A stretch of DNA of 64,000 bases from a bacterium (GCA_014360465.1 JACIXQ010000002.1:3719-67718); one strand, 5' to 3'; shown: positions 6,401 to 57,219, counted from the stretch's first letter. Program-made: numbers and translations. The notes: generated by a model not told the origin, from the letters alone.

Positions 6401-8554
6401 TCACCTCCCAAGAGAAAATATCAACGGCATCCAGGGGGAAAGCTCTACTTCAATGCGATTTGTTGAGCCGAACTCTCTTCCTGTGATTATCTCTTTAACT
6501 TTAAACCTGCGTGGAAGGATTATCTGGATCGTTTCTTCCTTTTCAATAGCCTCGTTGCCGGGGTAACCGATTTGTTTAAGCTCTTCCACACCAAACTCCG
6601 GATTCCTTATTACCGCCAAGTATTCCTCTTTTTCACCCTTGTATCTCAGTACTTCAACGCAGTCAGCTATTGTTCCATCGGGCTTTTGAACTTTAATAAG
6701 GGGTTTTATTCCATTATCCTTCAATAGTTTCCCCACCAAATCGAGAAAACTATGACCTTGAGGTGGAGAAAGACGAAGTTTTGGATAGACGCGGATGTCT
6801 AGGTTAAGATAGATAGCCTTGCCTTTCCCCACCTTGTTTTCTATTACTGCGGGGGCTTTGGCTGAATAGTGTGCTTTACCAGTGGTGGTTTCAATATCCT
6901 TTTCAAATATAGATATTGGGTGAGCCCCTGACTTATCAAGGATTATTTCTCCACCTTCCGGGTCAGGATGCCAACTCACATCCTTTCTTTTAATCCCGAA
7001 GAGGTCATCAAGCTGCCCTTTGGGAAGTCTTTTGCAATGTTCGTCCATCGTGGCGGTCATATTATCGGCTATAACTATTCCACCATTCTCTACAAACCTT
7101 TTTATTTCCTCACATTCCTTATTTGACATAGCCACAGATTGAGGAAGGAACAGGACCTTATATCCACCTTTAATAAGTTCGCCCTTTTCTATTTGCTCGC
7201 TTGAAACGAATTTGTATTGAAAACCGAGGTCCTCAACGAGACGGACAAAACCATTTCTCGCTTTGGCAAAGCGGGAATGAACTCTTTCATAGGAAGAGAA
7301 CCTGCGAGGCCAGGTATCGCCATCCTCACGGGAATCGAACATCCAGTGGGCGCGAATGCTGGCTTGAGAATAATGGATGGCGATGGGGTCGATTATTGGT
7401 TGTAGATGCATAATTGTCGGAGCAACAGCCTTGATTTCACTGAATATCTTCGCTAATTCCCTCCCCCTTTCAGTTATGGGCATATCATCCTTCTCCTTCT
7501 CAATACACCGACTTTGTTCATCGTCCCATACAAGGCAACCTTTGTCACCATGTAGGAGTAACCACCAGAGTTTTCTCCTAATACGATTGTAATCTGTACC
7601 AAAGACCGTGCTGATTATCGGAGCGTTCCGGGGAAAGAAGGAACGAAAAATCTCCCTACTATTGCAGATATCGTATGGTTCAACCCAATCAAGGGATTGG
7701 GAAAGCAGGTAAAGGTCATAACCTCCCCAAGCACTGGGCATTTGAGTCCCCTCTATTCCCACAGGGGTATCGGGGTCTATTTCGCGGATTATCCTTCTCA
7801 TACGGTCCAATGTCGTGGCAAAGGTGATGTCCATAAAAGCCCTGTGGTCAGCCCAAGGAGCGTAATTTTCCAGCTTACCTTCCGAAAGTGCCTTTCTTTC
7901 CCTGTCCTTTATTTCATAAGTTGTCATTGGTTGGACCTCATCCCAGGAGGCGTAATTAGTTTCCCATTCTTTGTTCAAGTTATCAAGCGAGCCGTATATT
8001 CCTTTCAACCACTCACGGAAAGCCTGCAGGGTATAAGGGGAAAAACAATAGTCCATAGGATTGGCGAAGAAGCCAATTGATGGTTCGTCTCTTAAGTCGT
8101 AGAGAAGAGGACGGTAGGGAGCATAGATAGAAACCATGTTTTTTAACTCTCTATCTATTTTCTCCCAAAAGGATGGGTCATGGAAGCAAGGATTGCGGAT
8201 AAGGAATTTCTTATCACGAGTAGTTATGTATGATTGGAAGTCCTTATCATACAGCGGTTGTCGGCTGTGGAGAAAACAAAGCTCAAATACTAAGTTTTCA
8301 GCGTAGAAGCCAAACCCCTGCTCAACAAAGGGCTTTGGGTCCCTGCCCCTAAAGCATTCCTCTGCGGTGAAGCCAAGCTCCTTTAGGCGTTGAATCCAAA
8401 GGGGGAAATTACTAACATCGCCAGTGCTCCACATAATCACCTGATATGTATCCCAACCTCGCCAGCTTTTTTCTCTATCCCTCGCTGAGTCCAGATAACC
8501 TTGGGCAATGATACATAAAAACAAACCTATTATGAGGAAGACCCAGATTTTCAT
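6401..8554 (-). CDS. Secreted GH42-like beta-galactosidase family protein (putative)
   Basis: Signal peptide MKIWVFLIIGLFLCIIAQG. A central segment, YKVLFLPQSVAMSNKECEEIKRFVENGGIVIADNMTA, resembles the GH42 trimerisation (glutamine-amidotransferase-like) domain. An N-terminal TIM-barrel-like region precedes it. Confidence 0.45.
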   Translation of the reverse strand: MKIWVFLIIGLFLCIIAQGYLDSARDREKSWRGWDTYQVIMWSTGDVSNFPLWIQRLKELGFTAEECFRGRDPKPFVEQGFGFYAENLVFELCFLHSRQPLYDKDFQSYITTRDKKFLIRNPCFHDPSFWEKIDRELKNMVSIYAPYRPLLYDLRDEPSIGFFANPMDYCFSPYTLQAFREWLKGIYGSLDNLNKEWETNYASWDEVQPMTTYEIKDRERKALSEGKLENYAPWADHRAFMDITFATTLDRMRRIIREIDPDTPVGIEGTQMPSAWGGYDLYLLSQSLDWVEPYDICNSREIFRSFFPRNAPIISTVFGTDYNRIRRKLWWLLLHGDKGCLVWDDEQSRCIEKEKDDMPITERGRELAKIFSEIKAVAPTIMHLQPIIDPIAIHYSQASIRAHWMFDSREDGDTWPRRFSSYERVHSRFAKARNGFVRLVEDLGFQYKFVSSEQIEKGELIKGGYKVLFLPQSVAMSNKECEEIKRFVENGGIVIADNMTATMDEHCKRLPKGQLDDLFGIKRKDVSWHPDPEGGEIILDKSGAHPISIFEKDIETTTGKAHYSAKAPAVIENKVGKGKAIYLNLDIRVYPKLRLSPPQGHSFLDLVGKLLKDNGIKPLIKVQKPDGTIADCVEVLRYKGEKEEYLAVIRNPEFGVEELKQIGYPGNEAIEKEETIQIILPRRFKVKEIITGREFGSTNRIEVELSPWMPLIFSLGR

Positions 8555-8642
8555 TGTATAAGGATTTTACAACAATTAGATAGTAGTCAACAAGAATTTT
8601 TAAAAATTTAGTTGGTATAGTTCGGTTTCTGTCTCACTCTAA

Positions 8643-8671
8643 TTGCCCAAATGACTATATTGAGATAGAAT
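8643..8671 (+). promoter_or_regulatory. Putative sigma70-type promoter for the nurA operon (-35 TTGCCC, 17-nt spacer, -10 TAGAAT), followed by RBS AAGGAGG at 8679-8685 and a GTG start at 8693
   Basis: Hexamers read directly from the sequence. The spacing is canonical, and the RBS lies 7 nt upstream of GTG. Confidence 0.3.
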
Positions 8672-8692
8672 AATATACAAGGAGGAGTTGCT

Positions 8693-9817
8693 GTGCCCTG
8701 CTACCCTAAGCAATTTGCCGAGAGCATAAAGAAAAAACAGGAGAAATTCCTCGCCCTTTTCAGCCCCGAGCCCAAAAACCAAGAAGAATCCTGGCTAAAA
8801 GAGGAAGTCCTTCGCAACTGGCATAAGTTTCCCTCTCTTTCCTCATCAAGCCAATCGGTTTTCGCAGTTGATGGCTCAAACGCTTGCCTCGCCCTTCAGG
8901 GTGGTAGATACATCTCTATTGTGCAGGCTGTCCTTCAAGGGAAGGAATGGCGAGAAATAGAAGTTGATGCAGAAGTATTCAGAGATACAGCCAATGTGGA
9001 TGTGGAGAGATTCCATCAGATTCATCGCCAGTGGCTTGAATGGAAGATAGCAAGGGAAAACGCCAAGAAGATGACCAATGGTATCCTCTTCCTGGACGGT
9101 AGCCTTTACATTTCTCCTGTCTTCTATAGTTGGACTATGATTCCCCAGCGAATGCCAGAAGGTTTAGAGGAAATGCCCCTGCTGGCAATGAACGAGTTCC
9201 TCTCCCTCGTCAATCTTTCAATCCGCCATAACCTGCAACTCGTGGGCATTTCTAAAACGAGTAAAAGCCATTTTTACCCACGGAGATTTCTAAACAAAGA
9301 TGTAGCAATAACCGATAGCGAGATTTTCACCTTCTGGACGAGTGATCCAGGCTATTCCACTCCTCTCCTTGTCGGACCCTATTTCATTCCTCAACCATGG
9401 GAAAGGGTGAAAGGAGAATTTCTCAAGGCGTATCAATCTGAGCTGAGTGAGAAAGTTGGTTCTATGCTTGATGAATTACTCCCTTCCCTTTCTGTGATAA
9501 TTTTCTTCGTAAGATTCGAAGAAGGAGATGAGGTTTACAGGGTGGATGTCCTCTCGTCATCGCTCAATTATAAAGTTAAGCCAGAAGAGCTTAAAGATAT
9601 GATATCATTAGAGCCCCAAATCGTTCATCCGCTTCTCTCCGTCCTACTTTCCTCACACGGAGGCTTTAATGTCTATCACAACCTTCTTTATGTGGCACAT
9701 AATGAGGTTATGCTGAGGGAAAAGGACCAGGATGTTTATATGAGTCTTTTGAGGGAATTGGTTCAACTGCCGATAAGGAGGAGCAAGGTGGACACGAGAT
9801 TTGGAAGGAGGTTTTAA
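8693..9817 (+). CDS. nurA: NurA-family 5'-3' nuclease
   Basis: 374 aa with a GTG start. The catalytic-aspartate motif VFAVDGSNACL and a second motif ILFLDGSLY are characteristic of NurA. It lies immediately upstream of herA with a 2-nt spacer. Confidence 0.7.
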   Translation: MPCYPKQFAESIKKKQEKFLALFSPEPKNQEESWLKEEVLRNWHKFPSLSSSSQSVFAVDGSNACLALQGGRYISIVQAVLQGKEWREIEVDAEVFRDTANVDVERFHQIHRQWLEWKIARENAKKMTNGILFLDGSLYISPVFYSWTMIPQRMPEGLEEMPLLAMNEFLSLVNLSIRHNLQLVGISKTSKSHFYPRRFLNKDVAITDSEIFTFWTSDPGYSTPLLVGPYFIPQPWERVKGEFLKAYQSELSEKVGSMLDELLPSLSVIIFFVRFEEGDEVYRVDVLSSSLNYKVKPEELKDMISLEPQIVHPLLSVLLSSHGGFNVYHNLLYVAHNEVMLREKDQDVYMSLLRELVQLPIRRSKVDTRFGRRF

Positions 9818-9819
9818 AT

Positions 9820-11535
9820 ATGGAAGTTGTCAAAAGTTATCAACCTGTAGGGTATATAGTGGGAAATGTAGAAACGCAAAGATTTCGCTTCGTAACGGAA
9901 CCGAGCATATGTCCCCCCAGGTTAGAATATCTCGTGGTTAGGGATGTTCCTGCGACGGAACAGGGAATGGACAAGGTGGATGTCTTAGCCCAGGTGAGCG
10001 AATTGAGAGTAGCAACCCAAGTTCTTGGCGAGGAATTGACATTTGAAGAAGCGAAAGCAATATTGGAGGGACTTTCTCCCCGTCCAAAGATAATCGGCAC
10101 AGCCGATGTTTTGGGCTATCTAACAAAGGATAAATCCGTTAGATTGCCACGCCACACTCCCCTGCCCGGTCAACCAGTTTTCCTTGCATCTGACGAGTTC
10201 CTCAAAAAATTCTTCTCAGAAAATATAGAATATGGAATCACCATCGGTACCCTTATAAATAGGGAGGGGGTTGAGGTCAAGCTGAATCCAAACGGTTTGA
10301 GGAGGCACCTGGCGATTATTGCCCAGACTGGGGCAGGCAAATCCTATCTTGCCGGTCTTCTACTTGAACAATTGTTGAAGCTCGGCGCAACAATTCTCGT
10401 CTTTGACCCTAACTCAGATTATGTGATGATGCGCCTCACAAAAGATATGCGAAAAACCAGCTTCGCTGACTGGGTTAGAGTATATCGCGTGCCCCTTAAG
10501 GGCGAAAGGCGCTATAGCGATGAGAAAATCGGAGGAAGCAGAAAATATACAATAAGATTCTGGACATTGGATGAGGAAGATATCTTCGAAATAGCTCAAA
10601 TTCACGAGAGCTGGACCAGAATCAGGGAATCCCTAAGCAAATTGCTCTCATTCGTGAAAAAGAGGAGCACCTATTTTACCCCTAAAGAATTGAAAGAAAC
10701 TTTGGACGAGTTCTTAAAAGGCGAATCAGCAGGAGAGCTGGACGAGCTGGAAGAAGGCATAGGAGAAGAATTCCTTGAAGCTATAACGCAAGATATGCAA
10801 ATGAAAAGCAAGGATAGAAAAAATACCAAGATGCCCCTCTCTTTCGAAGACATAAGGAGGATTAAACCTTATGTGGAAAGGATTGCTTCCTTGGAAATAT
10901 GGGGCGAAGAGGACCTTCCCATTGAGGAAATAATTGCTCCTCAAACCCTTTCCGTGGTGGACTTAGCAGGTCTCCAACAGAGAGCAATGGAGGTGGTTGT
11001 AGATAGAACTCTAAGAGGAATTTGGGAGAAGGCAGTTACGGGACAATTACCTCGTCCCCTGTTCATCTTCCTTGAGGAAGCCCACAACTTCGTCCCAGGG
11101 AGAGGGAAACCCAGCAGGTGCGCCGATATTATAAACCGCATAGCTGCTGAAGGACGCAAATTCAAGGTTTTTCTCGTCGTCATCACCCAGCGTCCCTATA
11201 AAATAAATCAGGATACCCTCTCCCAATGCGGTAGCCAAATAATAATGAAATTGACCAATCCCGAAGACCAGAAAGCAGTAAGGACTGCCTCTGAAAACAT
11301 TTCCGAATCCTTACTTGCCGATTTGCCCGGTCTGAATACTGGTGAGGCGGTCATCCTCGGTGGGCTTACCAGGGTTCCCGTTATGATAAGAGTGGGAGAA
11401 AGGGAATCCGCAGAAGGTGGCGCGGATGTAGATTTAATAAAGGAGCTACAACTGGCGAGTCAGGAAAAGATACAAGCTCGTATCGGTCTCGCTGAAAAGG
11501 ATGAACAATTCAAAGAAATGAATTTTGGGGTTTAG
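9820..11535 (+). CDS. herA: HerA-family (FtsK/HerA superfamily) DNA helicase/translocase ATPase
   Basis: 571 aa. N-terminal HAS-barrel-like region, Walker A AQTGAGKSY, Walker B LFIFLEEAHNF, a VVITQRP block and the helical insertion typical of HerA/DUF87. Confidence 0.85.
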   Translation: MEVVKSYQPVGYIVGNVETQRFRFVTEPSICPPRLEYLVVRDVPATEQGMDKVDVLAQVSELRVATQVLGEELTFEEAKAILEGLSPRPKIIGTADVLGYLTKDKSVRLPRHTPLPGQPVFLASDEFLKKFFSENIEYGITIGTLINREGVEVKLNPNGLRRHLAIIAQTGAGKSYLAGLLLEQLLKLGATILVFDPNSDYVMMRLTKDMRKTSFADWVRVYRVPLKGERRYSDEKIGGSRKYTIRFWTLDEEDIFEIAQIHESWTRIRESLSKLLSFVKKRSTYFTPKELKETLDEFLKGESAGELDELEEGIGEEFLEAITQDMQMKSKDRKNTKMPLSFEDIRRIKPYVERIASLEIWGEEDLPIEEIIAPQTLSVVDLAGLQQRAMEVVVDRTLRGIWEKAVTGQLPRPLFIFLEEAHNFVPGRGKPSRCADIINRIAAEGRKFKVFLVVITQRPYKINQDTLSQCGSQIIMKLTNPEDQKAVRTASENISESLLADLPGLNTGEAVILGGLTRVPVMIRVGERESAEGGADVDLIKELQLASQEKIQARIGLAEKDEQFKEMNFGV

Positions 11536-11537
11536 CC

Positions 11538-12737
11538 ATGGTCAAGCTGGTTATCTGCTCCGATACACATCTTAATGCGTATTACGCAAGAATGAGACCA
11601 GAACAACTTGAAAAAAGGCGTGAACGCCTTAGGCAAGCTTTCCAGAAAGTGGTTGACTTTGCTATTGAAGAGAAAGTGGATGTCTTCCTCCACGCAGGGG
11701 ACCTCTTTGATATGCCAGACCCTCGCTATAAAGAGGTCATCCTGACCTTCAGAGAGCTGAAGAGATTGAAAGAAGCAGGAATAAGAACATACCTAATAGG
11801 TGGCACACACGATATACCGAAAGCTATCTACGAAGCAGGCGGGGCACCAGTCCTCCACCTATATGAGGAAGCAGGTTTAGCGAAATTCTTCCGCTTTTTC
11901 CACACATCAGAGGCTGAAGTAATAGATGTAAACGGAAAAAGGTTGGTCATCGCCGGGGTCTCCTGTGACCCACGTATTAGAGATGGAAATCCCTTAGAAT
12001 CATTGAACCATACTCCAGCTGAGGGGGATTTCAGGATTTTTATGTTCCATTACGCAATAGAGGGAAAGATGCCAAGAATGTATGAGGGAGCTTTTGTCCC
12101 TCTCAGCTGTCTGCGTGATTTGCCCGCTGATATAATCGTTGCAGGGCATATACATCCTCACAGCCATTTTGAACTTGGAAACAAGCTGGTTATAATCCCC
12201 GGTGCAACGGAAAGGTTGGATTTCGGTGAGGAGGAAAATGAAACCGGTTTTTATTATGTGGAGCTTGAGAATAAACCCAAAATAAAGTATTTGAAAATCG
12301 AACCCCAGCGAATGCGTACAGTGGAGCTTCATATTTCCGAACTCGCTAACCAGCCCGAGGAGAAAAAAGCGGAGTACATCATATCTAAGCTGAAATCCTT
12401 CTCCCATCCAGACCAGCTCCTCAGATTTAGGCTTAAGGGTCAGATAAAACCAGCTCATTCTTCCCCAGGAACTAAACCCCCTTTCACCCAATTCATCCCC
12501 CTAAACAGGATTGTTGAAGAAGGGAATAACAATAATTTCTACTTCCACCTTGACCTTAGCGAGCTGAAAATCGAAAGTAGCCTGATAGAGACATACGGTG
12601 GAGAAGGCAATATCTCTATTTTTGAGGAAGTGGAGAAGGTAGTAAATTCTATGCTGGAGAGAGAAGATGAAACTATGAAAAAGCTTATCCAGGAAGCGAG
12701 GCATATCGTTCTCTCCAGGTTGGAGGAGGTGAGATAA
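11538..12737 (+). CDS. mre11: Mre11/SbcD-family calcineurin-like phosphoesterase nuclease
   Basis: 399 aa. Phosphoesterase motif I ICSDTHL, motif II HAGDLFD, motif III GGTHD (Thr in place of the usual Asn of GNHD), and motif V AGHIHPH. Confidence 0.8.
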   Translation: MVKLVICSDTHLNAYYARMRPEQLEKRRERLRQAFQKVVDFAIEEKVDVFLHAGDLFDMPDPRYKEVILTFRELKRLKEAGIRTYLIGGTHDIPKAIYEAGGAPVLHLYEEAGLAKFFRFFHTSEAEVIDVNGKRLVIAGVSCDPRIRDGNPLESLNHTPAEGDFRIFMFHYAIEGKMPRMYEGAFVPLSCLRDLPADIIVAGHIHPHSHFELGNKLVIIPGATERLDFGEEENETGFYYVELENKPKIKYLKIEPQRMRTVELHISELANQPEEKKAEYIISKLKSFSHPDQLLRFRLKGQIKPAHSSPGTKPPFTQFIPLNRIVEEGNNNNFYFHLDLSELKIESSLIETYGGEGNISIFEEVEKVVNSMLEREDETMKKLIQEARHIVLSRLEEVR

Positions 12738-12739
12738 AA

Positions 12740-15523
12740 ATGATATTGAGAAGATTGCAAGCAGAGGGTTTCAAGCATCTGCGGGGAATAGACCTTGTAT
12801 TCCCTCCAAAGGGGACCTTCCTCATCCAGGGAAATAATGAAGCGGGCAAGAGCAGTTTATTTGAGGTCGTTTATTTCTGCCTCTTCGGTAAAGGACTACA
12901 GGCACGGGCAAGTGAAGACCTTATCGGTTACGGTCTCAACGAGGCAAAGGTTTATGTGGAATTGGAATTGCCCAAGGGTGATTTGAAAATAGAACGGGTG
13001 ATAAGAAGGAATAAGACGAACACCGTAAAAGTTGTTGTGGGAGAGGAAGTGATAACCACAAGCAGGGAAGCTAACAGGCGCATCCAACAAGAAATTAACC
13101 TTGACCCCGATACCCTGCTGAATTCTTGCTTCGTTGAACAGAAAGCTTTGGAGAAACTTGAGGGACTCGATAAATCCTCAAGGGAAAGCGCCGTAATGAA
13201 ACTTCTTAATCTTGACAGGATACAAGCAATAGAGGAAGAACTAAAAGTTAAAAAAGAGGATGAGAGATTACTTGAGGAATGGAAGAAGAAAATGAGGGTA
13301 GCGGAAATAAGGGAAAGGAAACCTCACCTCCAGGTTGAGGTAGAGAAATACGAGACATTGAAGAGATTCTGGGAAGTTAAGGAGAAGCTCGCTGAGGCAG
13401 AGAAAAACAGAAGAATAGCAGATGAAGAAGAGAAGAAAATCCCCATTTTTGAGAAAGCTCGCAATGAATTGCAGGCAAAGGTTCAGGACCTCCACAAAAT
13501 CAGAGATAGAGAGCATAAGATTGACAATATCCTCCACTATATCCGCCTGATAAGCGAAAAAGAAGCTCATCTTTACAATATCAACAAGCAAATTGAAGCA
13601 ATAGAAAAGGAGAAAGCAAATCTCCCAATTCTTCAAAATAAATTGCACAAAGCTTATACCCTGCTTCGCTTACTCAGCAGGTTGGAAACCCTAAAAAACA
13701 GAATAAACGATTTTGCTAAATGGTTAGATATAGATAAGAAAATAGGAGAAGAGGAAAGCCGTGTGGAGATTCTTAACGCAGAATTAGAAGCAAAAAACGG
13801 AGAACTTGAAAATAGAAAAAAGAATATTGAACTTCTCTCAAAGTGGCGCGAGGTTAAGGAAAAAGAGGAGAAGCTTATAGAGAAGGAAAAACTTTCCGAG
13901 GAAGAGGGAAGAAACAAAAACCAGGCGATAATTGGTTTTGCCCTATCTTTCATCCTTGCTATTGTTCTCCTTCTCTCCCCCTTCAAGTGGTTTGCCCTGA
14001 TCACCATCTTACCCCTACTCTTTTCTGCTCGCTCCTATAAGAAAATGATGGATGCAAGACTCGGAAAAGCCCAAATAGAAGGCGCTTTGAAGGGAATAGA
14101 TATCTCGCACCTCAAAAATTTGAGGCACGAGCTTGAGAGGGAAAATTTGGGCGGGTTGGAGGAAATCGGCACTATAAATGAGAAGCTTGCAGAAGAAGAG
14201 AATATAGTGAGATTGCTTGAGAATGAAATAGAAAAGCTCAAAAGAACCATAAACCAAATTCAGGGGCGAAAAGAGGAATTGAGCAGACAGCTTGAACAAG
14301 TATTTCCTACTCATATATATTCTTTATCGCCCGAGGAAATCCCTCTTAAGAAGGAGAAGATGGAGGAACTTGTAAAGAAATGGGAAGAAAAGTTAGCATT
14401 ACTGGCAGAAGAATTTGGGTTACCTCTCGATATGGGAGACTTGCGTCAGCTAACGGGAAGGCTGGAAAACGATATAGGTAATATGAAGCAGAATATCGCC
14501 AAATTGCCAGAACTTCTCAAAGATAAGCAGAAGACCGAAGAAGAAATAACGAACATAAAGAGAGAAATAGATAAAATCGCCGAGAACTTCAGGGAGGAAA
14601 TTAAAGATGTTTATTCACGCGAGGACTGGGAGAGATTGAGAACAAATTTAAAGAGGATAAGGGACCAGCTGGAAAGAGAAGAGGTAGAGAAAAAACTCCA
14701 GGAAGCAATTGGTAGGTTGAGAGCACAGGAGCAGAAAGTCGCCACCTATAGGGAAAGAGCAGAAGAATTGGAGAAAATGGCGAAGGAAATCTCATCCACT
14801 CTCGGTGAGCCACCAGAAAATCTCCCTTCCCTTGAGGAGATTAATAAGAACCTTGACCAGAGGCGAGCTGAGCTAATTCAATGTGAAAAAGAAGAGCAGG
14901 AACTAATAAAGCAAATTTTGGGAGACATACCATCTCTTGAGAAATGCAGGGAGGAATACGAGAAGTTGGATAGGGAATTGCAGATAAGGACTCTTAGCGT
15001 CAACATCCTTGAACAAGCAAGGCAAAATATGACAAGGAAAATCCTCCCTCGTACCGAAAGCTATATGTGGAGCATATTACCATTAATAACTAACGATAGA
15101 TATCGCCAGGTTGAGCTTGACCCCGATACCTACCGAATAAAGGTATACGATGAGCGAGCGGGCGATTGGAAAGAAAAGCATATATTCAGCGGAGGCACGA
15201 GGGACCAAATGTCGCTTGCCTTGAGGCTTGCTTTCGCCCTCGCCACACTCCCCAAGGAAAGAGGCATAGCTCCCCGTTTCCTTTTCCTTGATGAACCCCT
15301 TTCCTCATTTGATGAGCAACGCAAAGAGGCATTGATAAAGGTAATCACAGAGGGAGAAATCGCCGATTCCTTTGACCAGATATTCATCATCAGCCACACT
15401 CCCCTTCTCAATCCCAACTTGTTCCATTTCTATATCTTTATGGAAAATGGAAGGATTAAAGAGTGTAGTGAAGAGTTACTACCTGCAGAAAAGAGAAACT
15501 TGACCAACACTACCCTAACTTAG
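12740..15523 (+). CDS. rad50: Rad50/SbcC-family SMC-like ATPase. Lacks a CxxC zinc hook and has a central hydrophobic hairpin.
   Basis: 927 aa. Walker A GNNEAGKSSLFE, long E/K-rich coiled coils, ABC signature FSGGTRDQMSLALRLAFAL, Walker B/D-loop LFLDEPLSSFD and H-loop IISHTP. There are only 5 Cys residues and none form CxxC. Near the midpoint is AIIGFALSFILAIVLLLSPFKWFALITILPLLFSA. Confidence 0.85.
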   Translation: MILRRLQAEGFKHLRGIDLVFPPKGTFLIQGNNEAGKSSLFEVVYFCLFGKGLQARASEDLIGYGLNEAKVYVELELPKGDLKIERVIRRNKTNTVKVVVGEEVITTSREANRRIQQEINLDPDTLLNSCFVEQKALEKLEGLDKSSRESAVMKLLNLDRIQAIEEELKVKKEDERLLEEWKKKMRVAEIRERKPHLQVEVEKYETLKRFWEVKEKLAEAEKNRRIADEEEKKIPIFEKARNELQAKVQDLHKIRDREHKIDNILHYIRLISEKEAHLYNINKQIEAIEKEKANLPILQNKLHKAYTLLRLLSRLETLKNRINDFAKWLDIDKKIGEEESRVEILNAELEAKNGELENRKKNIELLSKWREVKEKEEKLIEKEKLSEEEGRNKNQAIIGFALSFILAIVLLLSPFKWFALITILPLLFSARSYKKMMDARLGKAQIEGALKGIDISHLKNLRHELERENLGGLEEIGTINEKLAEEENIVRLLENEIEKLKRTINQIQGRKEELSRQLEQVFPTHIYSLSPEEIPLKKEKMEELVKKWEEKLALLAEEFGLPLDMGDLRQLTGRLENDIGNMKQNIAKLPELLKDKQKTEEEITNIKREIDKIAENFREEIKDVYSREDWERLRTNLKRIRDQLEREEVEKKLQEAIGRLRAQEQKVATYRERAEELEKMAKEISSTLGEPPENLPSLEEINKNLDQRRAELIQCEKEEQELIKQILGDIPSLEKCREEYEKLDRELQIRTLSVNILEQARQNMTRKILPRTESYMWSILPLITNDRYRQVELDPDTYRIKVYDERAGDWKEKHIFSGGTRDQMSLALRLAFALATLPKERGIAPRFLFLDEPLSSFDEQRKEALIKVITEGEIADSFDQIFIISHTPLLNPNLFHFYIFMENGRIKECSEELLPAEKRNLTNTTLT

Positions 15524-17147
15524 CAAGTTCTTTGACCAATTCATCCGTGAGGAATGGTAGGGAAAAGAGTATGAATCCCTTTGCTCCCTCCCTCTTTAAT
15601 ATTTCAAGCTGCCTCATCACTTCGTTTTTGCCTTTTGATACTTCCCTTCCTCTGACCACTTTGTAAATGCTCAAGCCCGCTATAATTCTCTTTAGCTCAG
15701 GGTCATATCTTTTCCATTCCTTGATAGCCGATAACAGCCTTCCATCGTCTACATAAGCCATTGGAGCAAGGAAATCAACTATCTCTTCTTCTATCCAGTT
15801 GTACCAATCTTGAAGGACTCTATCAGCGCTTATCTTGTTATAGAACACTGCTGCGCTCAATTGGAGCGAATCGGAATGCCCTTTTAACATTCTGAATACT
15901 TCTTCTACAAATGAAGTTATAAGAGCCTTACGATATGAGAGCCACTCTTCAATTAGTTTCCGCCTTTCATTGTTGTCACTGAACATTGGTATGAGCGGAT
16001 GCGTTTCAACAGGTAAGATATAATGTTTTCCCCTCATTACATCACTCAGCCCGCTCACTCCCAGAATATCTTCAATGGAGGAACCCTTTATCCCTCGCCT
16101 TCCAAGGGTGACTATTACTCTGCCACCTTTGTTAACAAATTCCTCTAAGTCCTTACTCACATCCTCACCAATCGTTTCCAAGCCCGGAATCAACACCACT
16201 AAATTATTTGGGTCAAGTTGCTTCAGCTCACCCAACATTCCCCATTTATATCCCCCTTCTTTAAGAAGCTTCAGCATTAACTGAAAATTCTCTTTATCAT
16301 AACTAAGCCCATTCCGCTGGAGAGGAATCAATATAGTACCTTCACCTTCCAGCGCCCGCCAAAGAGTGCGAGAAAAGAGGGGAAAGGAATTTTCATCCAC
16401 TGTCCAATTGAAGAAGAGAAGCCAACCTTTTGAGGAATTTTCCTTAATAGTAATGGCTGGAGTACCATTATCAAAACGAGCCAAAACCTTCGCAGTGACC
16501 ACTTTCACAAGTGGTTTAGAGTGGATTGAAAGGCTGATAGGTATTCCATAAAGCAAATCCAAAGGGTCAACTCCGTAGATTTTCCTAAAGCCACTACGGC
16601 ACTCCTCACAATAGCAGTAATCGTTGGAAGGAAAACGGATATAATCCAATTGCACTCCATCAACAGGATAATCCTTTAACAGGTCTGCAATAAGTTTCAG
16701 TTGAAAATCCCTTACTTCTTTCTTCCCTAAATCAAACCACCTCCTTTTCTCTCCTTTAGCGTTCTCTATTTGCCAATCCGGATGAAGTGAAAGTATTCCG
16801 TCACTTCCTTTACCTCCTTCCTGTCCATTTGAGAACCTAGCGAAAACCTTTATCCCTCTCTTATGGCATTCCTGAACGAAGTAGTAGAAGAGGTCATCAT
16901 CCTTTAGATTTTCCTGTGCAAGTGGTGCATAATCAGTTCTGAAAAAGCTTTTACCACCCCAGTAGTAAACAAGGACGAAAACCGCGTTCAGTTTGGCAGA
17001 AGCGATTCTTTGTGCTATTTTTTCTGCGGATTCTCTATCCCTTATTTGGGTAGCTTGCATCCAAATGCCCCTAAGCTCAAACTGACCTGCCAGGCAGGGG
17101 ATGAGAAAAAAGATGAGAAAAAGTTTTATAAAGAAACGATTTACCAT
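15510..17147 (-). CDS. Secreted glycoside-hydrolase-like family 10 (GHL10/DUF187, YngK-like) protein (putative)
   Basis: Signal peptide. N-terminal RGIWMQ, a VYYWGG TIM-barrel start typical of DUF187, and CYCEECRSGF. Its 3' end overlaps the rad50 3' end by 14 nt (convergent). Confidence 0.5.
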   Translation of the reverse strand: MVNRFFIKLFLIFFLIPCLAGQFELRGIWMQATQIRDRESAEKIAQRIASAKLNAVFVLVYYWGGKSFFRTDYAPLAQENLKDDDLFYYFVQECHKRGIKVFARFSNGQEGGKGSDGILSLHPDWQIENAKGEKRRWFDLGKKEVRDFQLKLIADLLKDYPVDGVQLDYIRFPSNDYCYCEECRSGFRKIYGVDPLDLLYGIPISLSIHSKPLVKVVTAKVLARFDNGTPAITIKENSSKGWLLFFNWTVDENSFPLFSRTLWRALEGEGTILIPLQRNGLSYDKENFQLMLKLLKEGGYKWGMLGELKQLDPNNLVVLIPGLETIGEDVSKDLEEFVNKGGRVIVTLGRRGIKGSSIEDILGVSGLSDVMRGKHYILPVETHPLIPMFSDNNERRKLIEEWLSYRKALITSFVEEVFRMLKGHSDSLQLSAAVFYNKISADRVLQDWYNWIEEEIVDFLAPMAYVDDGRLLSAIKEWKRYDPELKRIIAGLSIYKVVRGREVSKGKNEVMRQLEILKREGAKGFILFSLPFLTDELVKELAKLG

Positions 17148-31586: not shown

Positions 31587-33459
31587 AATTTTTCCGCCCA
31601 AATTCCTTTTCTGAAAGTTCTATCAAAGCCACGCTATTGGGAAGAAGGTTAAGATTTATCTCCCACCTACTTTTTAAGGGGATTTTTCCCTCCCTCGTGC
31701 ATTCCAATTTTCTCACACTGGGATTGTGGAAAACATTGTTATGCTCAGGGTCAATAAGAAATAGCCTGCTTATTCCGCCTCTCAGTGTAGCTGGCAATTG
31801 CTCAATTACAATTTTTACTAAGCGAGGAATTCCATAGCGTTCGGCGAAATTTACAACCAAGATTGTCAAACGGGAAGAGCCAGGAGAAATAGAAGCGAGA
31901 GCGCATATCTCGTCATCTCCGCCAAGTGTCTCTACCCTATCTTTTTCCATCATAGAGAAAAGCTTAAAAACAAAATAGGAAGGCTTGGGTATATTATCTC
32001 CTATCAACATACCCCAGCTTCCTCTGAATCTTTTATCCCCATCCTTGGCGTAGAAGAAGCATACACCTGTTATTCCCGCAGGTATACTCGCTCTAATGAT
32101 ATTGTTAGCAACCCAGGCGGAACCAACTTCGTTATCCTGGGCGAAATCTGGCCACCAAGCATAGTTGAATTCGGTTAGGAAAAAACCCTTTATTCTTCTC
32201 TCAATTCTGGGATATTTCGCGAGTATAGCTTTGGTTTTCTCCATTTCTTCAATATAAACTTCCGGCGGATGGAAATATTCGTGCCAGGTTATGAAGTCAA
32301 GTGGCAATCCTTTCTCGTTGCAGAATTTGAGCAAGCCCTCCATATAAGTTTCTCCATTGATGCAATAGGGTCTCTCCTCTGAATAATCCCAAGGTCCTGA
32401 AGCATTGCAAGGTCCTCCAACAAGGGCATTTGGGTCTGCTTTTTTTATCCCTTTAACAGAAGCTTCATATAGTTTAAGATAAGCTTCCAATGGAGTGATA
32501 CCGGGCGGTGGTTTTAACCATCCCGCATTTGCCTCATTCCAAACCTCCCAATAGCGCACCCTTTTACCCCTCTCTATACAATGTTTAGCCGCTTTATAGC
32601 ATAAATCTTCCCATAAAGTGTAATCTTTGGGAGCACTATGGCGGTCGGGGTCAGGAATAGCATCAAAAGGAATTGGCATATAGGAGAGACAGATGATTGG
32701 CTCTGCCCCCGTCTGGAATATGAAGTCAATCCTCCTATCGAAATCTGTCCAATCATAAACCAATTTTCCATTTTCCTCCCTTACAACCGAGGTGAGAACA
32801 TTGTCCATCCTGAACCATAGAGGTTTTAGGTCCTTTAATGCCAAAGCAGTGTCGGGTTCATAATCAGCCATCCCACCTCCCTGCGAGATGCCGGCAAGCG
32901 GGCGTGGCAGTATTCCCTGAATATTCCTTGGATTAATTCTAATAAGACAAGGCTTGTTCGCTTTCTCAAAGGGTATTATCTTCAGCTCTGCTTGCTCGAA
33001 TACCACTTCTCTTTCTCCCATTACTGGTCCAAAAACCCTTATCGCCAAAGTGTGAACCTCCCCGGGGACTGCATGCTTACTCAGCAGTGCCGCTCCAGGA
33101 TGGTCATTGTCATATCTTGCTTGAAGCTTTCCATCAACATATATCTCACCACCCTCGCTTGTAGAGACAAACATAGCAACAGGTAAACCTTTGACGCTCT
33201 GTTCATCTATTTTCTCAGGAATTCTCACCCAAGCTTTCAACCAACCGAACTCGCCTTCTTTCATCTTGAATTTAGCACCCACCTTTACGATATCCCAATC
33301 CAAACAGGGATAATTTGGCTGGGAGAATTCCTTTCTATCTTCCGAGGTCCAATACCAAATGTCCTCGGCTAAAATCGGATTTATCAAATAAAAAACAGCT
33401 AACAAAAACCAAATTAAGGGATTTCCTCTCATCAACCCCAGAAGTGATATATGCGCCAA
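31555..33459 (-). CDS. Secreted clan GH-A glycoside hydrolase, GH39-like (putative)
   Basis: Signal peptide. Acid/base motif YWEVWNEANAGW and nucleophile-like FLTEFNYAWWP on a TIM barrel, followed by C-terminal beta-sandwich domains. The 3' end overlaps trmI by 32 nt (convergent). Confidence 0.55.
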   Translation of the reverse strand: MAHISLLGLMRGNPLIWFLLAVFYLINPILAEDIWYWTSEDRKEFSQPNYPCLDWDIVKVGAKFKMKEGEFGWLKAWVRIPEKIDEQSVKGLPVAMFVSTSEGGEIYVDGKLQARYDNDHPGAALLSKHAVPGEVHTLAIRVFGPVMGEREVVFEQAELKIIPFEKANKPCLIRINPRNIQGILPRPLAGISQGGGMADYEPDTALALKDLKPLWFRMDNVLTSVVREENGKLVYDWTDFDRRIDFIFQTGAEPIICLSYMPIPFDAIPDPDRHSAPKDYTLWEDLCYKAAKHCIERGKRVRYWEVWNEANAGWLKPPPGITPLEAYLKLYEASVKGIKKADPNALVGGPCNASGPWDYSEERPYCINGETYMEGLLKFCNEKGLPLDFITWHEYFHPPEVYIEEMEKTKAILAKYPRIERRIKGFFLTEFNYAWWPDFAQDNEVGSAWVANNIIRASIPAGITGVCFFYAKDGDKRFRGSWGMLIGDNIPKPSYFVFKLFSMMEKDRVETLGGDDEICALASISPGSSRLTILVVNFAERYGIPRLVKIVIEQLPATLRGGISRLFLIDPEHNNVFHNPSVRKLECTREGKIPLKSRWEINLNLLPNSVALIELSEKEFGRKNFRNQRDALRR

Positions 33460-35345
33460 TTAAAGAGAATTCCCATTATATTGGCAAGGCTTCCCACTGT
33501 GAACTCACCGAGAATCAATCCGAAAAAGAAGGGTAAAGCAACCCTATAACCTTTCAATCCAGTGGTCCTCATTATGATAAACTTGATCAACCAAGCAATG
33601 AAGATTGGGAACCACATCCAGCTCATACTCCAGGAAGAGGAAACGGCGTATCCAACAGGATGGAATGGCCACCAGAAAAATGATGTCTTCATAAATATAA
33701 GGAAAAGACATACAGCAAAGCCAACGCCGGTGAAGACCGAACACAGTGGATCCCGTTTGGCTGGAGTTTCTATCCAGGAGGAAAGTCTGTTATAAGGTTC
33801 CCAGCCAAACCAAGTAGCGGGTCCAACTACTTTCGCTGAAGCGGCACCTATTCTATAGTAAAGGTCCAGAAGAGCCCAAAATGCAACGAATGAACCGATG
33901 AAGGAAGCAAGTAACATAATCCACATATATTGCTTGTAACTTGTGTTTGTTCTTTCCGCTATTTTGAATCCTTCCATTTGATGGGGCATTGGATGAGAAC
34001 GATAAGCCCTGTTGAAACCCCAATATAAAGAAAGAACAGTGAGATTCCTCGGAGATATGTTCTCTACTCCCCAGATGCGGGTTATCATCTGGTCGGGACC
34101 GGCAAAGTGGAGGTCGTGCGCTGGTGAACCAAGCTCCGCCCTCATCCTTGCCACAGCGATGGAGAGAATGAAAAAGATAGCCAGGGCAATTAGTGAGACA
34201 CTCCAACTCATACCAGCTCTTACGAAGAGATAAGCAGCTAATGGATATCCTATGAGAAGTCCTAAAATTGCCGTCCTATATGACATAGGCTCATCCGAAT
34301 CGTCCAATTCCGATTTCATACCCAAGGCTCTCTTGAAGACCTCCTTCAAATAGTGACGAGCTACCCATATCACAAAGAAAGTAACCCCTATATACGCGCC
34401 CGCTGATTGGTCATTGATATATGGCATATCCGGTCTACCGACATGGAGATTGAAGGCAACGCTCACAACCCTTTGAAACTTCCAATACCAATAGAAGAAC
34501 CAACAGGAAAAGGAGAGGTCAAGAGGGAGAAGGAAACCAAGCCCAATTATGCAGGGGAATAAGGCAAGGGGAGTCCAACCTATAGCCCACCAGGGATGGG
34601 TCGTCATATATTGCCCCAGGTCATAATCCCTTATTGGAATGTGTGGAATAGCGGGGAAATTGGCGTTTATGTTGTTAATTATATCAACAAGCGCTGCTAA
34701 TCCGAAACCAATCCACATAAGCCTTTGTTTGAACAGAGTGAACTTTTCATCGGTCATTGCCAAGGGGAGTATAATAATTGGGAAGGTAAGTCGCTCCCTT
34801 TCCGTCCACTGCTTTCTGAAGATTACATTAATACACATCATCATAAATATCAGGACCATAAAGAAACCCGTCCAAATTAAAATAACAGGTAGCCAAGCAC
34901 GGATATGCTCCTTAGTGTAAAAACTTGACCATCCAAGGAAATACCCTTCAAGTATATTCTTGTCGGAAACCATCAACCATTTGGGTAGATATTTGAAGAA
35001 GAGTTTCTCCCATTTGTTCTCGGGTGTAGCATACCAGAATGGATGGGTAAGACAAGCGATAAGAACCTGATACATATCATGCCCCACCATACAGGAACTC
35101 AAAGCCAAAATAGAATATATAACCAAGAGTTCCCCTTGACTGAACATATAGCGAGGCGCCACCTTGCTCAAAAAGAAATTAATCAAAACAAGGAAAAGAA
35201 GGGTAAAAACGACATTGAAGAATAGCGACATCGTTGTGGGATGCCCAGTGTATGTAATAACTTCCATATAAGCTACCCACCAGGAATTAAGCGGCATAAG
35301 AAATATCGCTATTAGAACTGCCCTAAGGGTTATCGCTTTCCTCAT
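33432..35345 (-). CDS. Polytopic integral membrane protein (637 aa, at least 12 predicted TM helices), unknown function
   Basis: Many 18-24-residue hydrophobic segments rich in W/F/Y. No recognisable transporter signature by eye. Confidence 0.45.
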   Translation of the reverse strand: MRKAITLRAVLIAIFLMPLNSWWVAYMEVITYTGHPTTMSLFFNVVFTLLFLVLINFFLSKVAPRYMFSQGELLVIYSILALSSCMVGHDMYQVLIACLTHPFWYATPENKWEKLFFKYLPKWLMVSDKNILEGYFLGWSSFYTKEHIRAWLPVILIWTGFFMVLIFMMMCINVIFRKQWTERERLTFPIIILPLAMTDEKFTLFKQRLMWIGFGLAALVDIINNINANFPAIPHIPIRDYDLGQYMTTHPWWAIGWTPLALFPCIIGLGFLLPLDLSFSCWFFYWYWKFQRVVSVAFNLHVGRPDMPYINDQSAGAYIGVTFFVIWVARHYLKEVFKRALGMKSELDDSDEPMSYRTAILGLLIGYPLAAYLFVRAGMSWSVSLIALAIFFILSIAVARMRAELGSPAHDLHFAGPDQMITRIWGVENISPRNLTVLSLYWGFNRAYRSHPMPHQMEGFKIAERTNTSYKQYMWIMLLASFIGSFVAFWALLDLYYRIGAASAKVVGPATWFGWEPYNRLSSWIETPAKRDPLCSVFTGVGFAVCLFLIFMKTSFFWWPFHPVGYAVSSSWSMSWMWFPIFIAWLIKFIIMRTTGLKGYRVALPFFFGLILGEFTVGSLANIMGILFNWRIYHFWG

Positions 35346-48545: not shown

Positions 48546-49861
48546 AAAGATTCCGCTTGGGTGTAGATGTCGGGACAACGAGGGTAAAATCCGCGGTTGT
48601 AGATGAAAATGGTAATATAGTCAGTTTCGCATCCTATCAGATAAGACTCTATATTGAAGGAAATAGGATTGAAATTGACCCCGAGGAACTATGGAGGGCT
48701 GTAGTCGCAGTCATCAAGCAAACAACCTCCAGCGACTTCATAAAAGAAAACCTCATTGGACTTAGCCTGGCAACACAGGGAGGCACACTAATCCTCCTTG
48801 ATGAGAAAAACAATCCCATCAGACGAGCGATAACCTGGATGGACACTAGAGCAAAAGAGGAAAATGAAGAATTGCTGGAAAATTACGGAGCTGAATTCTT
48901 CTACAAGATAACTGGCTGGCTTCCTTCCCAAGCCTGCCTTCCCCTCTCACAGCTTCTCTGGCTTCGTAAAAAAGAAACGGATACTTTCAGAAAGATTGCC
49001 AAATGCCACTTCGTTGACTCCTACCTCCTTTACAGGCTTACTAAAAACGAATGCACAGACTGGACAAACGCAGCAATAACCATGCTATCCAACATCAGAG
49101 AGAAAAAGTGGGATGAAAGACTTTTAAAGATAGTTGGTATCAGCGAGGAGCAGTTGCCTTTGATAAAACCTCCTGGTACCCCTATATCTTCCCTCAGCGA
49201 GACCGCTTCCACAGAACTTGGCTTGCCTCGTGACACGCTCGTCTTTAGCGGAGGGCACGACCAGTATTGCTCAGCCCTTGGAGCTGGAATAGAGAGAGCA
49301 GGAGAAGTCCTACTATCGGCGGGAACAGCTTGGGTTGTCCTTGCAATAACCGATAAGCCCTACTTCAGCTCAACTTACGAATTTTACCCCGGACCACATC
49401 TCAGAGAAAATCTCTGGGGTGCCCTAACCTCCATCCCCTATGGTGGAGCCTCCTACGATTGGTTCTTGAAAAATATCCTGATGAACAAAATTTCCTATGA
49501 GGAAGCGGATGAATTAATAAAGAAAGCGGAAGGAGAAACACCGATTTTCAAGCCATTCCTATCCCAAAATGAAAGCAAAGCGGTTTTCTCTAATTTAGCC
49601 ATCAACCATACTACCGGTCATCTTCTCCGGGCAATTATGGAGGGAATAGCCCAGGAAGTTAAAAGGAAAATTCAGATTATGATTCAGGAGGGCATAGAGA
49701 TAAGGAGCTTGAAGATGGTGGGCGGAGGGGCAAGGAGCTCTGTTTGGCAATCCATCGTCTCCCAAACTCTTCGCCTCCCTGTTTCTATCCCGCCTAACCT
49801 TGAAACGGCTTGTCTCGGTGCCGCCTTGCTCGTCAATCTTAAAAAGGGTGATGAGATATGA
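48542..49861 (+). CDS. FGGY-family carbohydrate kinase (xylulokinase-like)
   Basis: 439 aa. N-terminal LGVDVGTTRVKSAVVDENG, GGTLILLD, and a C-terminal GGGARS motif. Confidence 0.8.
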   Translation: MKRFRLGVDVGTTRVKSAVVDENGNIVSFASYQIRLYIEGNRIEIDPEELWRAVVAVIKQTTSSDFIKENLIGLSLATQGGTLILLDEKNNPIRRAITWMDTRAKEENEELLENYGAEFFYKITGWLPSQACLPLSQLLWLRKKETDTFRKIAKCHFVDSYLLYRLTKNECTDWTNAAITMLSNIREKKWDERLLKIVGISEEQLPLIKPPGTPISSLSETASTELGLPRDTLVFSGGHDQYCSALGAGIERAGEVLLSAGTAWVVLAITDKPYFSSTYEFYPGPHLRENLWGALTSIPYGGASYDWFLKNILMNKISYEEADELIKKAEGETPIFKPFLSQNESKAVFSNLAINHTTGHLLRAIMEGIAQEVKRKIQIMIQEGIEIRSLKMVGGGARSSVWQSIVSQTLRLPVSIPPNLETACLGAALLVNLKKGDEI

Positions 49862-53970: not shown

Positions 53971-54310
53971 GAAGAATTAATCAAGCGATTTAATAAAAGT
54001 TATATTTCTCAAAATCTATTCAACATCTTGACTTATAAACCATCTTTAATATTCCATCGCCCCTTCTGCTTTGAAATGTGATACTCCACAAAAAGTGCAA
54101 AAATCTTGGTTGTCTACTTGTGGTTTCTATTATTACAACCTCCTCACCTCCTTCTAAATCTTCAATTGTAAGATAATCAAATATTGAAAAGCATTCTTGC
54201 TTTGGACATTCTTCCTTCCACATAATCATAATACAATGTAAATCTTTGAAAAATAAAAAAGCTTGCCTTGGACTCCAAAGTATTACTTGAGAGGAGTAGT
54301 TCATTTAACG

Positions 54311-55879: not shown

Positions 55880-56097
55880 ATACTTCTCTTGTGGTGTCTT
55901 TCCTCAAAAACAAATCGCTTTGAAAGCCTTGTTTACTCGCTTCCCAAAATCTCAATCCGTTCGGTAACATCATTTACTATTTGCTGAAATGTAACTTGGT
56001 GTAGAAAGGAAACTATTTTTCAGTAAATTATTGTTAAGGGAGAGCGTAGAGTTGAATACTTTTAAAGAAGAAATTATAATGAATAAAAAAGACCAAA

Positions 56098-57216: not shown

Positions 57217-57219
57217 GCG

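Follow-up and report, generated by a model that had tools for sequence, protein, structure and literature searches.

A hookless Rad50-type ATPase with a conserved hydrophobic hairpin, a probable membrane tether, encoded in a bacterial NurA-HerA-Mre11-Rad50 operon

Analysis of a 64,000-nucleotide (nt) stretch of DNA from an unclassified bacterium (GCA_014360465.1, JACIXQ010000002.1:3719-67718; hereafter the window) revealed that the last gene of a NurA-HerA-Mre11-Rad50 operon (12740..15523, stop codon included; coordinates are those of the window, on its + strand unless a minus is given) codes for a Rad50-type SMC-like ATPase of 927 amino acids (aa), which lacks the zinc hook and carries a hydrophobic helical hairpin within the N-terminal arm of its coiled coil. 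The hairpin is real and conserved, is almost certainly functional, and, to judge from its sequence, probably ties the DNA-end-processing machine to the membrane. With a probability of roughly 0.6, we favor the reading that the protein is a hookless Rad50-type ATPase whose hairpin inserts in the cytoplasmic membrane and thereby tethers the distal end of the Mre11-Rad50 rod. The zinc hook, as found in P. furiosus and M. jannaschii Rad50, is treated as universal and functionally essential in Rad50, and its contribution, whether to ring closure, end tethering, or long-range allostery, is debated. A large natural hookless clade that keeps the Mre11-Rad50 core offers a ready-made test of which functions of the hook are replaceable and by what. 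If the favored reading is true, the machinery that resects double-strand breaks would also be physically located at the membrane, and there would be a link to the SbcE protein seen at the competence pole of B. subtilis.

The identification of the protein as a Rad50 homologue in an Mre11-Rad50-HerA-NurA operon, which had been proposed in a first reading of the DNA without database searches (the sequence-only reading), is borne out by family matches and gene order. Sequence conservation revealed a complete bipartite ABC-ATPase head: a Walker A/P-loop, G31-N-N-E-A-G-K-S38 (12830..12853), with G31, N33, E34, G36, K37, and S38 invariant in a 30-sequence family alignment; a Q-loop glutamine, Q134, conserved in at least 90% of the family; an ABC signature, S817-G-G-T820 (15188..15199), with S817, G818, and G819 invariant or nearly so; a Walker B motif, F847-L-F-L-D851-E852 (15278..15295), with D851 and E852 at least 90% conserved; and an H-loop histidine, H886, conserved to the same degree. 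Pfam matches comprise SMC_N (48.8 bits, cut-off 40), AAA_23, AAA_27, and SbcC_Walker_B. A family profile retrieved the Rad50 chains 5f3w/3aux as its best PDB matches (5e-41), with other Rad50 entries next; E. coli SbcC was absent from these matches at E<=1e-5. Further, hidden Markov models (HMMs) of the head halves of the family cross-scored at 104 and 102 bits with models of hook-bearing Rad50. The NCBIfam Rad50 models gave 62-98 bits, below their cut-offs (the best, Rad50_Sulf, 98.4 bits versus a cut-off of 1000), and the sbcc model TIGR00618 gave 37 bits versus 478.5; because these scores fall so far under the cut-offs, we regard the protein as a member of a divergent branch rather than as a curated archaeal orthologue or equivalog. 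In the full-length AlphaFold model (built from the 30-sequence alignment; mean predicted local distance difference test [pLDDT] score, 82.6), a folded head with a pLDDT of 85-95 is joined to a near-continuous helix spanning aa 172-783, and the top fold matches of this model are Smc5/6, Rad50, condensin, and MukB, with JetC also among the matches. By the sequence of its head domains, then, the protein is of the Rad50 type and not of the YhaN type. As for the hook, the protein contains five cysteines (47, 130, 715, 736, and 909) and no CxxC anywhere, just as the sequence-only reading had it, and Pfam Rad50_zn_hook returned no match on the protein, nor on ten midpoint fragments at E<=10.

The hairpin peptide, AIIGFALSFILAIVLLLSPFKWFALITILPLLFSA, corresponds to aa 396-430 (nt 13925-14029) and comprises 35 aa arranged as 17 + 4 + 14; the interval first given for it, 13924-14030, was correctly placed and one base too wide at each end. 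Hydrophobic helix 1 (A396-L412; 13925..13975) is an uninterrupted run of 17 apolar residues, against an initial estimate of about 20, and continues AlphaFold helix 376-412 without a break. It is followed by the turn S413-P414-F415-K416 (13976..13987), which appears as a break at 413-417 in the full-length model and at 413-415 in a model of the central fragment, and by hydrophobic helix 2 (W417-A430; 13988..14029), whose 14 apolar residues run into AlphaFold helix 418-450. The SPFK turn, the second stretch of about 14 aa, and the basic flanks (GRNKNQ upstream and RSYKKMMDAR downstream) are all as originally described. The helix-turn-helix formed by 376-412 and 418-450 has a pLDDT of 60-74 when the whole protein is modeled, rising to 81-89 for the fragment. 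The hairpin reaches a Kyte-Doolittle 19-residue maximum of 2.61 and a summed Hessa-scale score of -1.6; helix 1 alone sums to -4.2 as a 17-mer and -1.6 as a 19-mer, so that these simple hydrophobicity scales score it as membrane-like. For calibration, all 39 open reading frames (ORFs) of at least 200 aa in the window were scored on both scales. The polytopic membrane proteins fall in the same range as the hairpin (SecDF, 2.37/-2.2; a YfhO-like protein, 2.52/-1.3), and the ORFs that have no strongly hydrophobic segment have Kyte-Doolittle values of at most 1.85 and Hessa values of at least +3.8. The hydrophobicity of the hairpin lies well outside what chance would yield.

A first homologue search recovered 31 relatives with identities down to 25%, nearly all of which lack a CxxC and show two hydrophobic stretches in an equivalent position. 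Scanning a single genome for each GTDB species yielded 188 relatives, and 78 of the loci were fetched. These are mostly from Chloroflexota (Anaerolineae, Ktedonobacteria, and Thermoflexus), including the cultured Thermogemmatispora tikiterensis T81 (L059), with other carriers in Armatimonadota, Caldisericota, Nitrospirota, Rhodothermales, Rubrobacter, Thermobaculum, and Acidobacteriota; two further members of the family (P0029 and P0030) are Asgard archaeal. Complete genomes with the gene include OZ244956.1 and OZ244848.1. Current annotations of the members go no further than "SMC family ATPase" or "exonuclease SbcC", and NCBI names the protein from the window "SMC family ATPase [bacterium]" (MBC7326616.1). 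An uncharged hydrophobic block with a median length of 45 aa is found in 86 of the 91 full-length members from the homologue and GTDB searches. An exhaustive profile search yielded more than 150 clusters (50% identity) above 555 bits. Among the full-length representatives of the best 150, which number 136, 118 carry a block 30 aa or longer whose position is fraction 0.42-0.47 of the protein, and none has a midpoint CxxC. Outside the family the pattern is reversed: a midpoint CxxC is present in 69 of 74 relatives, three of the five that lack it (P0049, P0056, and P0094) have a hydrophobic hairpin instead, and no hook-bearing relative has a central hydrophobic block. Hook and hairpin thus behave as alternatives. 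The comparison with orthologues leaves the sequence-only reading standing on this point, in that relatives retain the hydrophobic insert and no CxxC appears in them. The monophyly of the family is itself weakly supported, as a neighbor-joining tree of the heads recovered it as one clade in only 49 of 200 bootstraps.

The breadth of this conservation also bears on whether a true hook might be concealed by a frameshift, by chimeric assembly, or by a wrongly called ORF, an explanation that we regard as scarcely credible. Nothing was found that speaks for it. The opposite strand has ORFs at 13654-14007 and 14015-14314. These antisense ORFs (117 and 99 aa, both on the minus strand) are an S/F/L-rich mirror of the E/K-rich coil and are very unlikely to be genes. 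The 927-aa ORF is continuous, with head motifs intact on both sides of the segment; homologues that are 47-60% identical retain the hairpin and show no gaps over the segment; and more than 100 independent homologues from different assemblies have the same element in the same place.

What is conserved in the block is its character rather than its sequence. Its length ranges from 35 to 60 aa across the family, and its residues vary freely while the composition stays constant (79% L/A/V/G/I/F and 1.1% charged residues), with a center that is usually P, G, N, Q, or S. The ten-residue flanks contain 3.0 and 2.5 K/R against a background of 1.68, and 1.2 and 0.95 D/E against 1.93 in the rest of the coil. 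In the 11-sequence sub-clade of the window protein, the block is of the short 17 + 4 + 14 form, with the turn motif [S/T/A]-P-x-K in 11 of 11; in other sub-clades, both helices have 20-22 residues and Hessa scores of at most 0. These features help in weighing an alternative in which the hairpin lies outside the membrane and makes up the hydrophobic core of a soluble dimer or oligomer of Rad50, in effect a zinc-free four-helix "hook". Such a core would supply the apex-joining element that Rad50 needs and whose usual form, the hook, is missing here; moreover, the insolubility in E. coli of the central domain of SbcE (see below) could equally reflect aggregation of an oligomerization core. We nevertheless consider this improbable. 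Runs of 17 and 14 consecutive apolar residues have neither a polar face nor a heptad pattern, and the free variation of the sequence while it stays apolar, the 35-60 aa range of block lengths, the basic and acid-poor character of both flanks, and a hydrophobicity equal to that of transmembrane helices from the same genome together fit lipid-facing rather than protein-packed segments.

Composition, length, K/R-rich and D/E-poor flanks, and the AlphaFold helix-turn-helix thus support the membrane hairpin put forward in the sequence-only reading; the second helix supports it less well, and this is one of several points that weigh against a membrane-inserted hairpin acting as a tether. In the window protein, helix 2 has only 14 apolar residues, its best 19-mer in this sub-clade scores +6.6 on the Hessa scale, it contains a proline (P425) conserved in the sub-clade, and a conserved lysine lies in the turn. 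Because of these features, full spanning of the bilayer is uncertain for this protein, and on its sequence either a tight spanning hairpin or a re-entrant one is possible. Both hydrophobicity scales, moreover, are position-independent, and their scores are an indication and not a prediction. The packing motifs GxxxG and [GAS]xxx[GAS] are not enriched in 59 non-redundant hairpins (z = 0.15 and -0.55), so that self-association of the hairpin receives no support from sequence. A full block is also missing from some members that are equally hookless: five loci from GTDB, three of the first-search proteins, and 18 among the 136 representatives (about 13%). As these keep the heads and the distal motifs, the anchor is dispensable for the core enzyme. 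Their nearest neighbors by head distance carry the block, which makes them look like secondary losses. The genomic neighborhood, with its glycoside hydrolases, SecDF, and RelA, contains no hint of membrane-linked DNA transactions. Finally, the hairpin is not a simple equivalent of the hook: in 40 family members, its turn is displaced from the midpoint of the molecule by a median of -137 residues.

Members with neither hook nor hydrophobic block include L027, L032, L071, L024, and L017, together with P0025, P0027, P0028, L054, and L074. In L027, L032, and L071, an S-P-K turn is kept (TSSPKSL, compare LSPFKW in the window sub-clade), along with the LEGE and midpoint-loop motifs, and P0025, P0027, P0028, and L054 have a different, soluble insert of the form LRL..DHP..G..V.L.

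The displacement noted above was measured with a position ruler running from the invariant Q-loop glutamine to the signature serine. On this ruler, 67 hook-bearing relatives have their CxxC at the midpoint (N side minus C side, median 0, interquartile range [IQR] -46 to 0). In the 40 family members, what occupies the midpoint is a loop about 40 aa past the hairpin (median -5.5, IQR -17 to +2). The midpoint of the window protein lies near aa 473, some 60 aa downstream of the hairpin, and the center of the hairpin is at fraction 0.445 of the protein, about 45-75 residues N terminal to the sequence midpoint. The sequence-only reading had located the hairpin near the midpoint, where the hook should sit, and had expected alignment with relatives to confirm that it replaces the hook; neither expectation held. 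Since the hairpin lies off the midpoint and a Cys-free loop is found there, the hairpin looks like an addition inside the N arm rather than a one-for-one replacement of the hook. The arms themselves are E/K-rich coiled coils on either side, as described from the start, with 22-23% D+E and 18-24% K+R. The N-terminal arm (aa 172-395; 13253..13924; AlphaFold helices 172-233, 237-374, and 376-412) would be about 33 nm long if fully helical and has two helix breaks in its 223 aa; the C-terminal arm (aa 431-783; 14030..15088) has nine short ones in 352 aa. This asymmetry is a trait of the family, in which the hairpin is located at fraction 0.42-0.47, versus 0.49-0.56 for the hooks of relatives. The protein resembles canonical zinc-hook Rad50/SbcC proteins in its ABC-ATPase head motifs, its long antiparallel coiled coil, and its adjacent Mre11 and differs from them in having no CxxC, a hairpin inside the N arm, and a C arm longer by about 130 aa.

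The region distal to the hairpin was modeled as a fragment (aa 340-600; mean pLDDT, 89.4), with the same secondary structure as in the full-length model: helices at 376-412, 418-450 (416-450 in the fragment model), 455-467, 476-521, and from 533 onward. A fold search of the fragment model against the PDB gave only generic helical-bundle matches, which were non-significant (E>=0.18). Three elements punctuate this region. The first, a conserved h-E-G(-E) motif (I446-E447-G448; 14075..14083), lies 17 aa past the hairpin; its G448 is conserved in at least 90% of the sequences of alignment A1 and in 76% of a 91-sequence alignment. The second is the Cys-free midpoint loop itself, E468-N-L-G-G-L473-E-E-I476 (14141..14167), a break at 468-475 in both AlphaFold models, whose motif, E-x-x-L-x-x-L-[GN]-h-x-[VI]-P-x-[STD]-x-E-x-A, is the best conserved of the central region; the column of L473 contains proline in 78 of 91 family members, a residue lost in the window protein. 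Both of these motifs are kept by members that have no hydrophobic block. The third is a Pro/aromatic-rich loop, F522-P-T-H-I-Y-S-L-S-P-E532 (14303..14335), a break at 522-532, where the fragment model has its lowest pLDDT; the [FL]-P start of this loop is conserved in the window sub-clade only. We also considered whether the midpoint loop could be a decayed zinc hook, given [VI]-P-x-[ST] versus C-P-x-C, and hmmalign, hhalign, and Pfam left this unproven. Alignment to the hook HMM with hmmalign placed the hook at or beside the midpoint loop in P0016, P0017, and P0021 (with RPAC of P0021 over CPTC), whereas for the window protein it landed elsewhere, at FPTH 522-525; the placements by hhalign were of low confidence and shifted with the master sequence.

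Two arrangements of the distal region fit the models. In one, a fold-back tip, the hairpin would be the physical tip and helices 431-467 and 476-521 would fold back alongside the rod, so that the N arm pairs with 533-783 (219 versus 218 helical residues according to DSSP). In the other, the midpoint loop would be the tip and the hairpin would project sideways from the N arm (256 versus 264 helical residues by the same measure). The first is favored by the AlphaFold helices, which are unbroken across 395/396 and 430/431, and the second by its hook-like symmetry about the midpoint loop. The side-projecting arrangement is also part of an alternative to a spanning hairpin, in which the hairpin is a wedge (monotopic, re-entrant, or in-plane) that enters only the cytoplasmic leaflet, the coil 431-521 lies on the membrane surface, and the midpoint loop forms the tip of the rod. 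The small block of this sub-clade, only 17 + 4 + 14 residues with two conserved prolines, P414 and P425, is what such a wedge might look like. The agreement in helical residues when the hairpin is treated as a side excursion, and the coincidence of the Q-loop-to-signature midpoint with the loop at about aa 473, as with the hook in relatives, are further points in its favor. However, it would bury the conserved lysine of the turn in the core of the bilayer, and AlphaFold helices 376-412 and 418-450 run on from the flanking coil with no kink at 395/396 or 430/431. Further, most other sub-clades have two runs of 20-22 apolar residues with a short polar turn, as is typical of spanning hairpins. 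On balance, we think the wedge rather unlikely.

Returning to a hairpin that tethers the rod to the cytoplasmic membrane, we infer the following mechanism. The hairpin would enter the membrane from the cytoplasmic side with both of its ends remaining cytoplasmic, a requirement of an architecture in which the two arms return to the ATPase head in the cytoplasm. The rod would thereby be tethered at its distal end, and the heads, Mre11, and HerA-NurA could work on DNA at distances of up to about 30 nm. As the zinc hook is absent, the arms of Rad50 would need to be joined in another way; candidates would be the packing of hairpin against hairpin in the bilayer and/or aa 431-521, the conserved distal coil and loop that contain no Cys. 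A different mode of dimerization or tethering is thus a reasonable inference. More speculatively, recognition and resection of DNA ends might be confined to the vicinity of the membrane, acting on broken chromosome ends held at the envelope or on entering linear DNA, a step that leans on the polar, competence-associated localization of SbcE in B. subtilis.

SbcE (YhaN) is the closest architectural precedent. Krishnamurthy et al. (2009, PMC2811018) described it as an SbcC-like protein that has no CxxC and possesses a "unique central domain", hydrophobic in its first half and including a highly conserved proline; when expressed in E. coli, it is insoluble. It is partnered by the SbcD-like SbcF (YhaO), has roles in break repair and transformation, and gathers in polar foci when cells are competent. 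The central domain was not interpreted as transmembrane in that paper. The window protein is likewise hookless, with a hydrophobic first half of the central region, a conserved proline, and an SbcD/Mre11-like neighbor; it differs in that its partner genes code for archaeal-type Mre11, HerA, and NurA. This likeness is one of architecture and is not evidence of common descent. Our comparison with YhaN rests on YhaN-labelled relatives rather than on B. subtilis YhaN itself. One of these, P0049, has a full-length AAA_27 match (63.3 bits, positions 1-198) and belongs to a large Planctomycetota family that bears the JGI label "uncharacterized protein YhaN". Among 117 such Planctomycetota proteins, none has a midpoint CxxC, and a two-helix hydrophobic block at about 0.43 is present in 35 under a strict two-19-mer threshold, as well as in all eight sequences inspected. 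The AAA_27 match of the window protein covers only positions 1-93 of 206 (25.7 bits), the head halves of its family score 23 and 22 bits against YhaN-type HMMs, and the YhaN group forms a clade in 200 of 200 bootstraps and is joined to the window family without hook-bearing proteins in 0 of 200. From these head scores and bootstraps, which robustly split YhaN from the window family, it follows that the hookless-hairpin architecture occurs in two deeply separated branches. It is tempting to extend this to the view that two deep Rad50/SbcC branches, the Rad50-type clade and YhaN/SbcE, independently swapped the hook for a membrane hairpin and constitute a widespread and almost unstudied class of membrane-tethered end-processing enzymes; we offer this tentatively, as a conjecture with the odds some way against it. 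If true, both branches would patrol DNA at the envelope (uptake, conjugation, phage injection, and broken ends), with the bilayer replacing zinc at the tips of the rods.

With regard to precedence, SbcC-like proteins that lack the hook and have a hydrophobic central domain have been known since 2009 in the form of SbcE/YhaN. What appears to be undescribed in the literature covered is a hookless hairpin in a bona fide Rad50-type clade that is coupled to Mre11 and, in some members, to HerA-NurA, together with the phylogenetic breadth of this clade and its retained Cys-free midpoint loop. Our literature search, whose coverage did not extend to the ABC-ATPase classification of Krishnan et al. 2020, returned no paper on a transmembrane or membrane-anchored Rad50, the SbcE paper alone being relevant, and none on bacterial NurA-HerA-Mre11-Rad50 operons with a membrane-anchored Rad50.

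A membrane anchor might also be real and serve mainly in defense against foreign DNA, such as that of phages or plasmids, with ends caught at entry and destroyed by Mre11 and HerA-NurA. SMC-like rods whose arms are joined without a zinc hook, as in RecN, Lamassu LmuB, and Wadjet JetC, resemble the window protein in this respect; to our knowledge, no membrane hairpin occurs in these families. The PADLOC model for LmuB (PDLC03859) scores the window protein at 100.7 bits (3e-29), close to the 98 bits of the Rad50 models; HerA matches defense-type HerA models (NCBIfam HerA_antiphage, 1.6e-30); the Asgard member P0030 lies directly upstream of BrxL and an AAA_5 ATPase; and SbcE acts in transformation and localizes to the competence pole. 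On the other hand, NurA and Mre11 match no PADLOC defense model, and HerA reaches 202 and 190 bits with archaeal repair-type models, above the 106 and 104 bits that it reaches with anti-phage models. The genes of the window are those of an ordinary chromosome, and a relative of 59% identity has the same neighbors. On viral contigs, no member of the family was found, only distant hook-bearing relatives. Defense as the principal function therefore seems to us possible and not probable. A Lamassu or another SMC-based defense system was considered for the window and rejected, as the partners are missing, with no LmuA/LmuC-like or Jet gene adjacent in the window, and the nearest sequence is Rad50 proper.

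The operon in which the protein occurs consists of four adjacent, co-oriented genes, each separated from the next by 2 nt. The first codes for the nuclease NurA (374 aa; 8693..9817; Pfam NurA PF09376, E=1e-20) and is followed by the gene for the hexameric helicase/translocase HerA (571 aa; 9820..11535; Pfam DUF87/HerA, 6e-36; NCBIfam helicase_HerA, 1.6e-59), the nearest solved relatives of which are 9x1l ("DNA helicase", 2.6e-45) and 4d2i HerA (1.8e-42). The third codes for the Mre11-type nuclease (399 aa; 11538..12737; Pfam Metallophos, 8.7e-15; NCBIfam Mre11_Sulfo, 4.6e-28), whose nearest solved chains, 3av0, 4tug, and 3qg5, are all annotated as Mre11. The end-resection operon of thermophilic archaea, reportedly described by Constantinesco and colleagues in 2004 and taken up in later structural work on HerA-NurA, is matched here in all four genes, their order, and their tight packing; the differences are the bacterial host and a Rad50 that is hookless and probably tethered to the membrane. 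A promoter-like site is present upstream of NurA, and the frequency of such sites is not above that in shuffled sequence.

The operon is conserved in relatives of the Rad50-type protein. Mre11 lies immediately upstream of the Rad50-type gene in 36 related GTDB loci, and HerA and NurA accompany Mre11-Rad50 in only a minority of family loci. One locus, L084, has the identical NurA-HerA-Mre11-Rad50 order, but the Rad50 there bears a hook. In about one-third of the GTDB loci with sufficient flanks (these include L009-L011, L013, L016, L018, L025, L027, L042-L045, L055, and L061), neither Mre11 nor HerA nor NurA adjoins the hairpin-bearing Rad50; most of these Rad50 proteins are from Anaerolineae and measure about 990 aa. 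The neighbors of Rad50 there are unrelated genes, coding for an M32 carboxypeptidase, an HD phosphohydrolase, SelA, and an S1-domain protein; in such genomes, the nuclease partner is therefore encoded elsewhere or absent. A different setting is seen in the Asgard archaeon Candidatus Harpocratesius sp. (L003), where a 1568-aa family member (6669-11375 of that locus) has its hydrophobic hairpin at a fraction of about 0.41. Ahead of its gene lies a weakly Mre11-like one, and BrxL (BrxL_N + BrxL_ATPase) and an AAA_5 ATPase follow directly at 11404-15535, an arrangement reminiscent of a defense island; L004 is a further locus of this kind. In the window, the 3' end of the Rad50 gene overlaps a convergent gene for a GHL10-type glycoside hydrolase (15510-17147, minus strand) by 14 nt (15510-15523), and the same convergent overlap is found in the relative L001, where it measures 6 nt.

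The rest of the window is ordinary chromosome, with glycoside hydrolases, SecDF, RelA/SpoT, and two tRNAs. Four consecutive, co-oriented ORFs at 54263-61049 (538, 372, 526, and 750 aa), each with 7-12 strongly hydrophobic segments, lie in its stretch of lowest GC content (0.38-0.42 versus about 0.44). The last of them has a YfhO-like C terminus, the first matches nothing in Pfam at E<=1e-5, and the group may be a cell-envelope or glycosylation gene block. Pfam likewise gave no match at this threshold for two other large ORFs, at 49858-52791 (977 aa) and 42777-44750 (657 aa). The minus strand (33432-35345) encodes a polytopic membrane protein of 637 aa that matches full-length DUF6785 + DUF6784 (E=6e-170) and adjoins a GH39 glycoside hydrolase.

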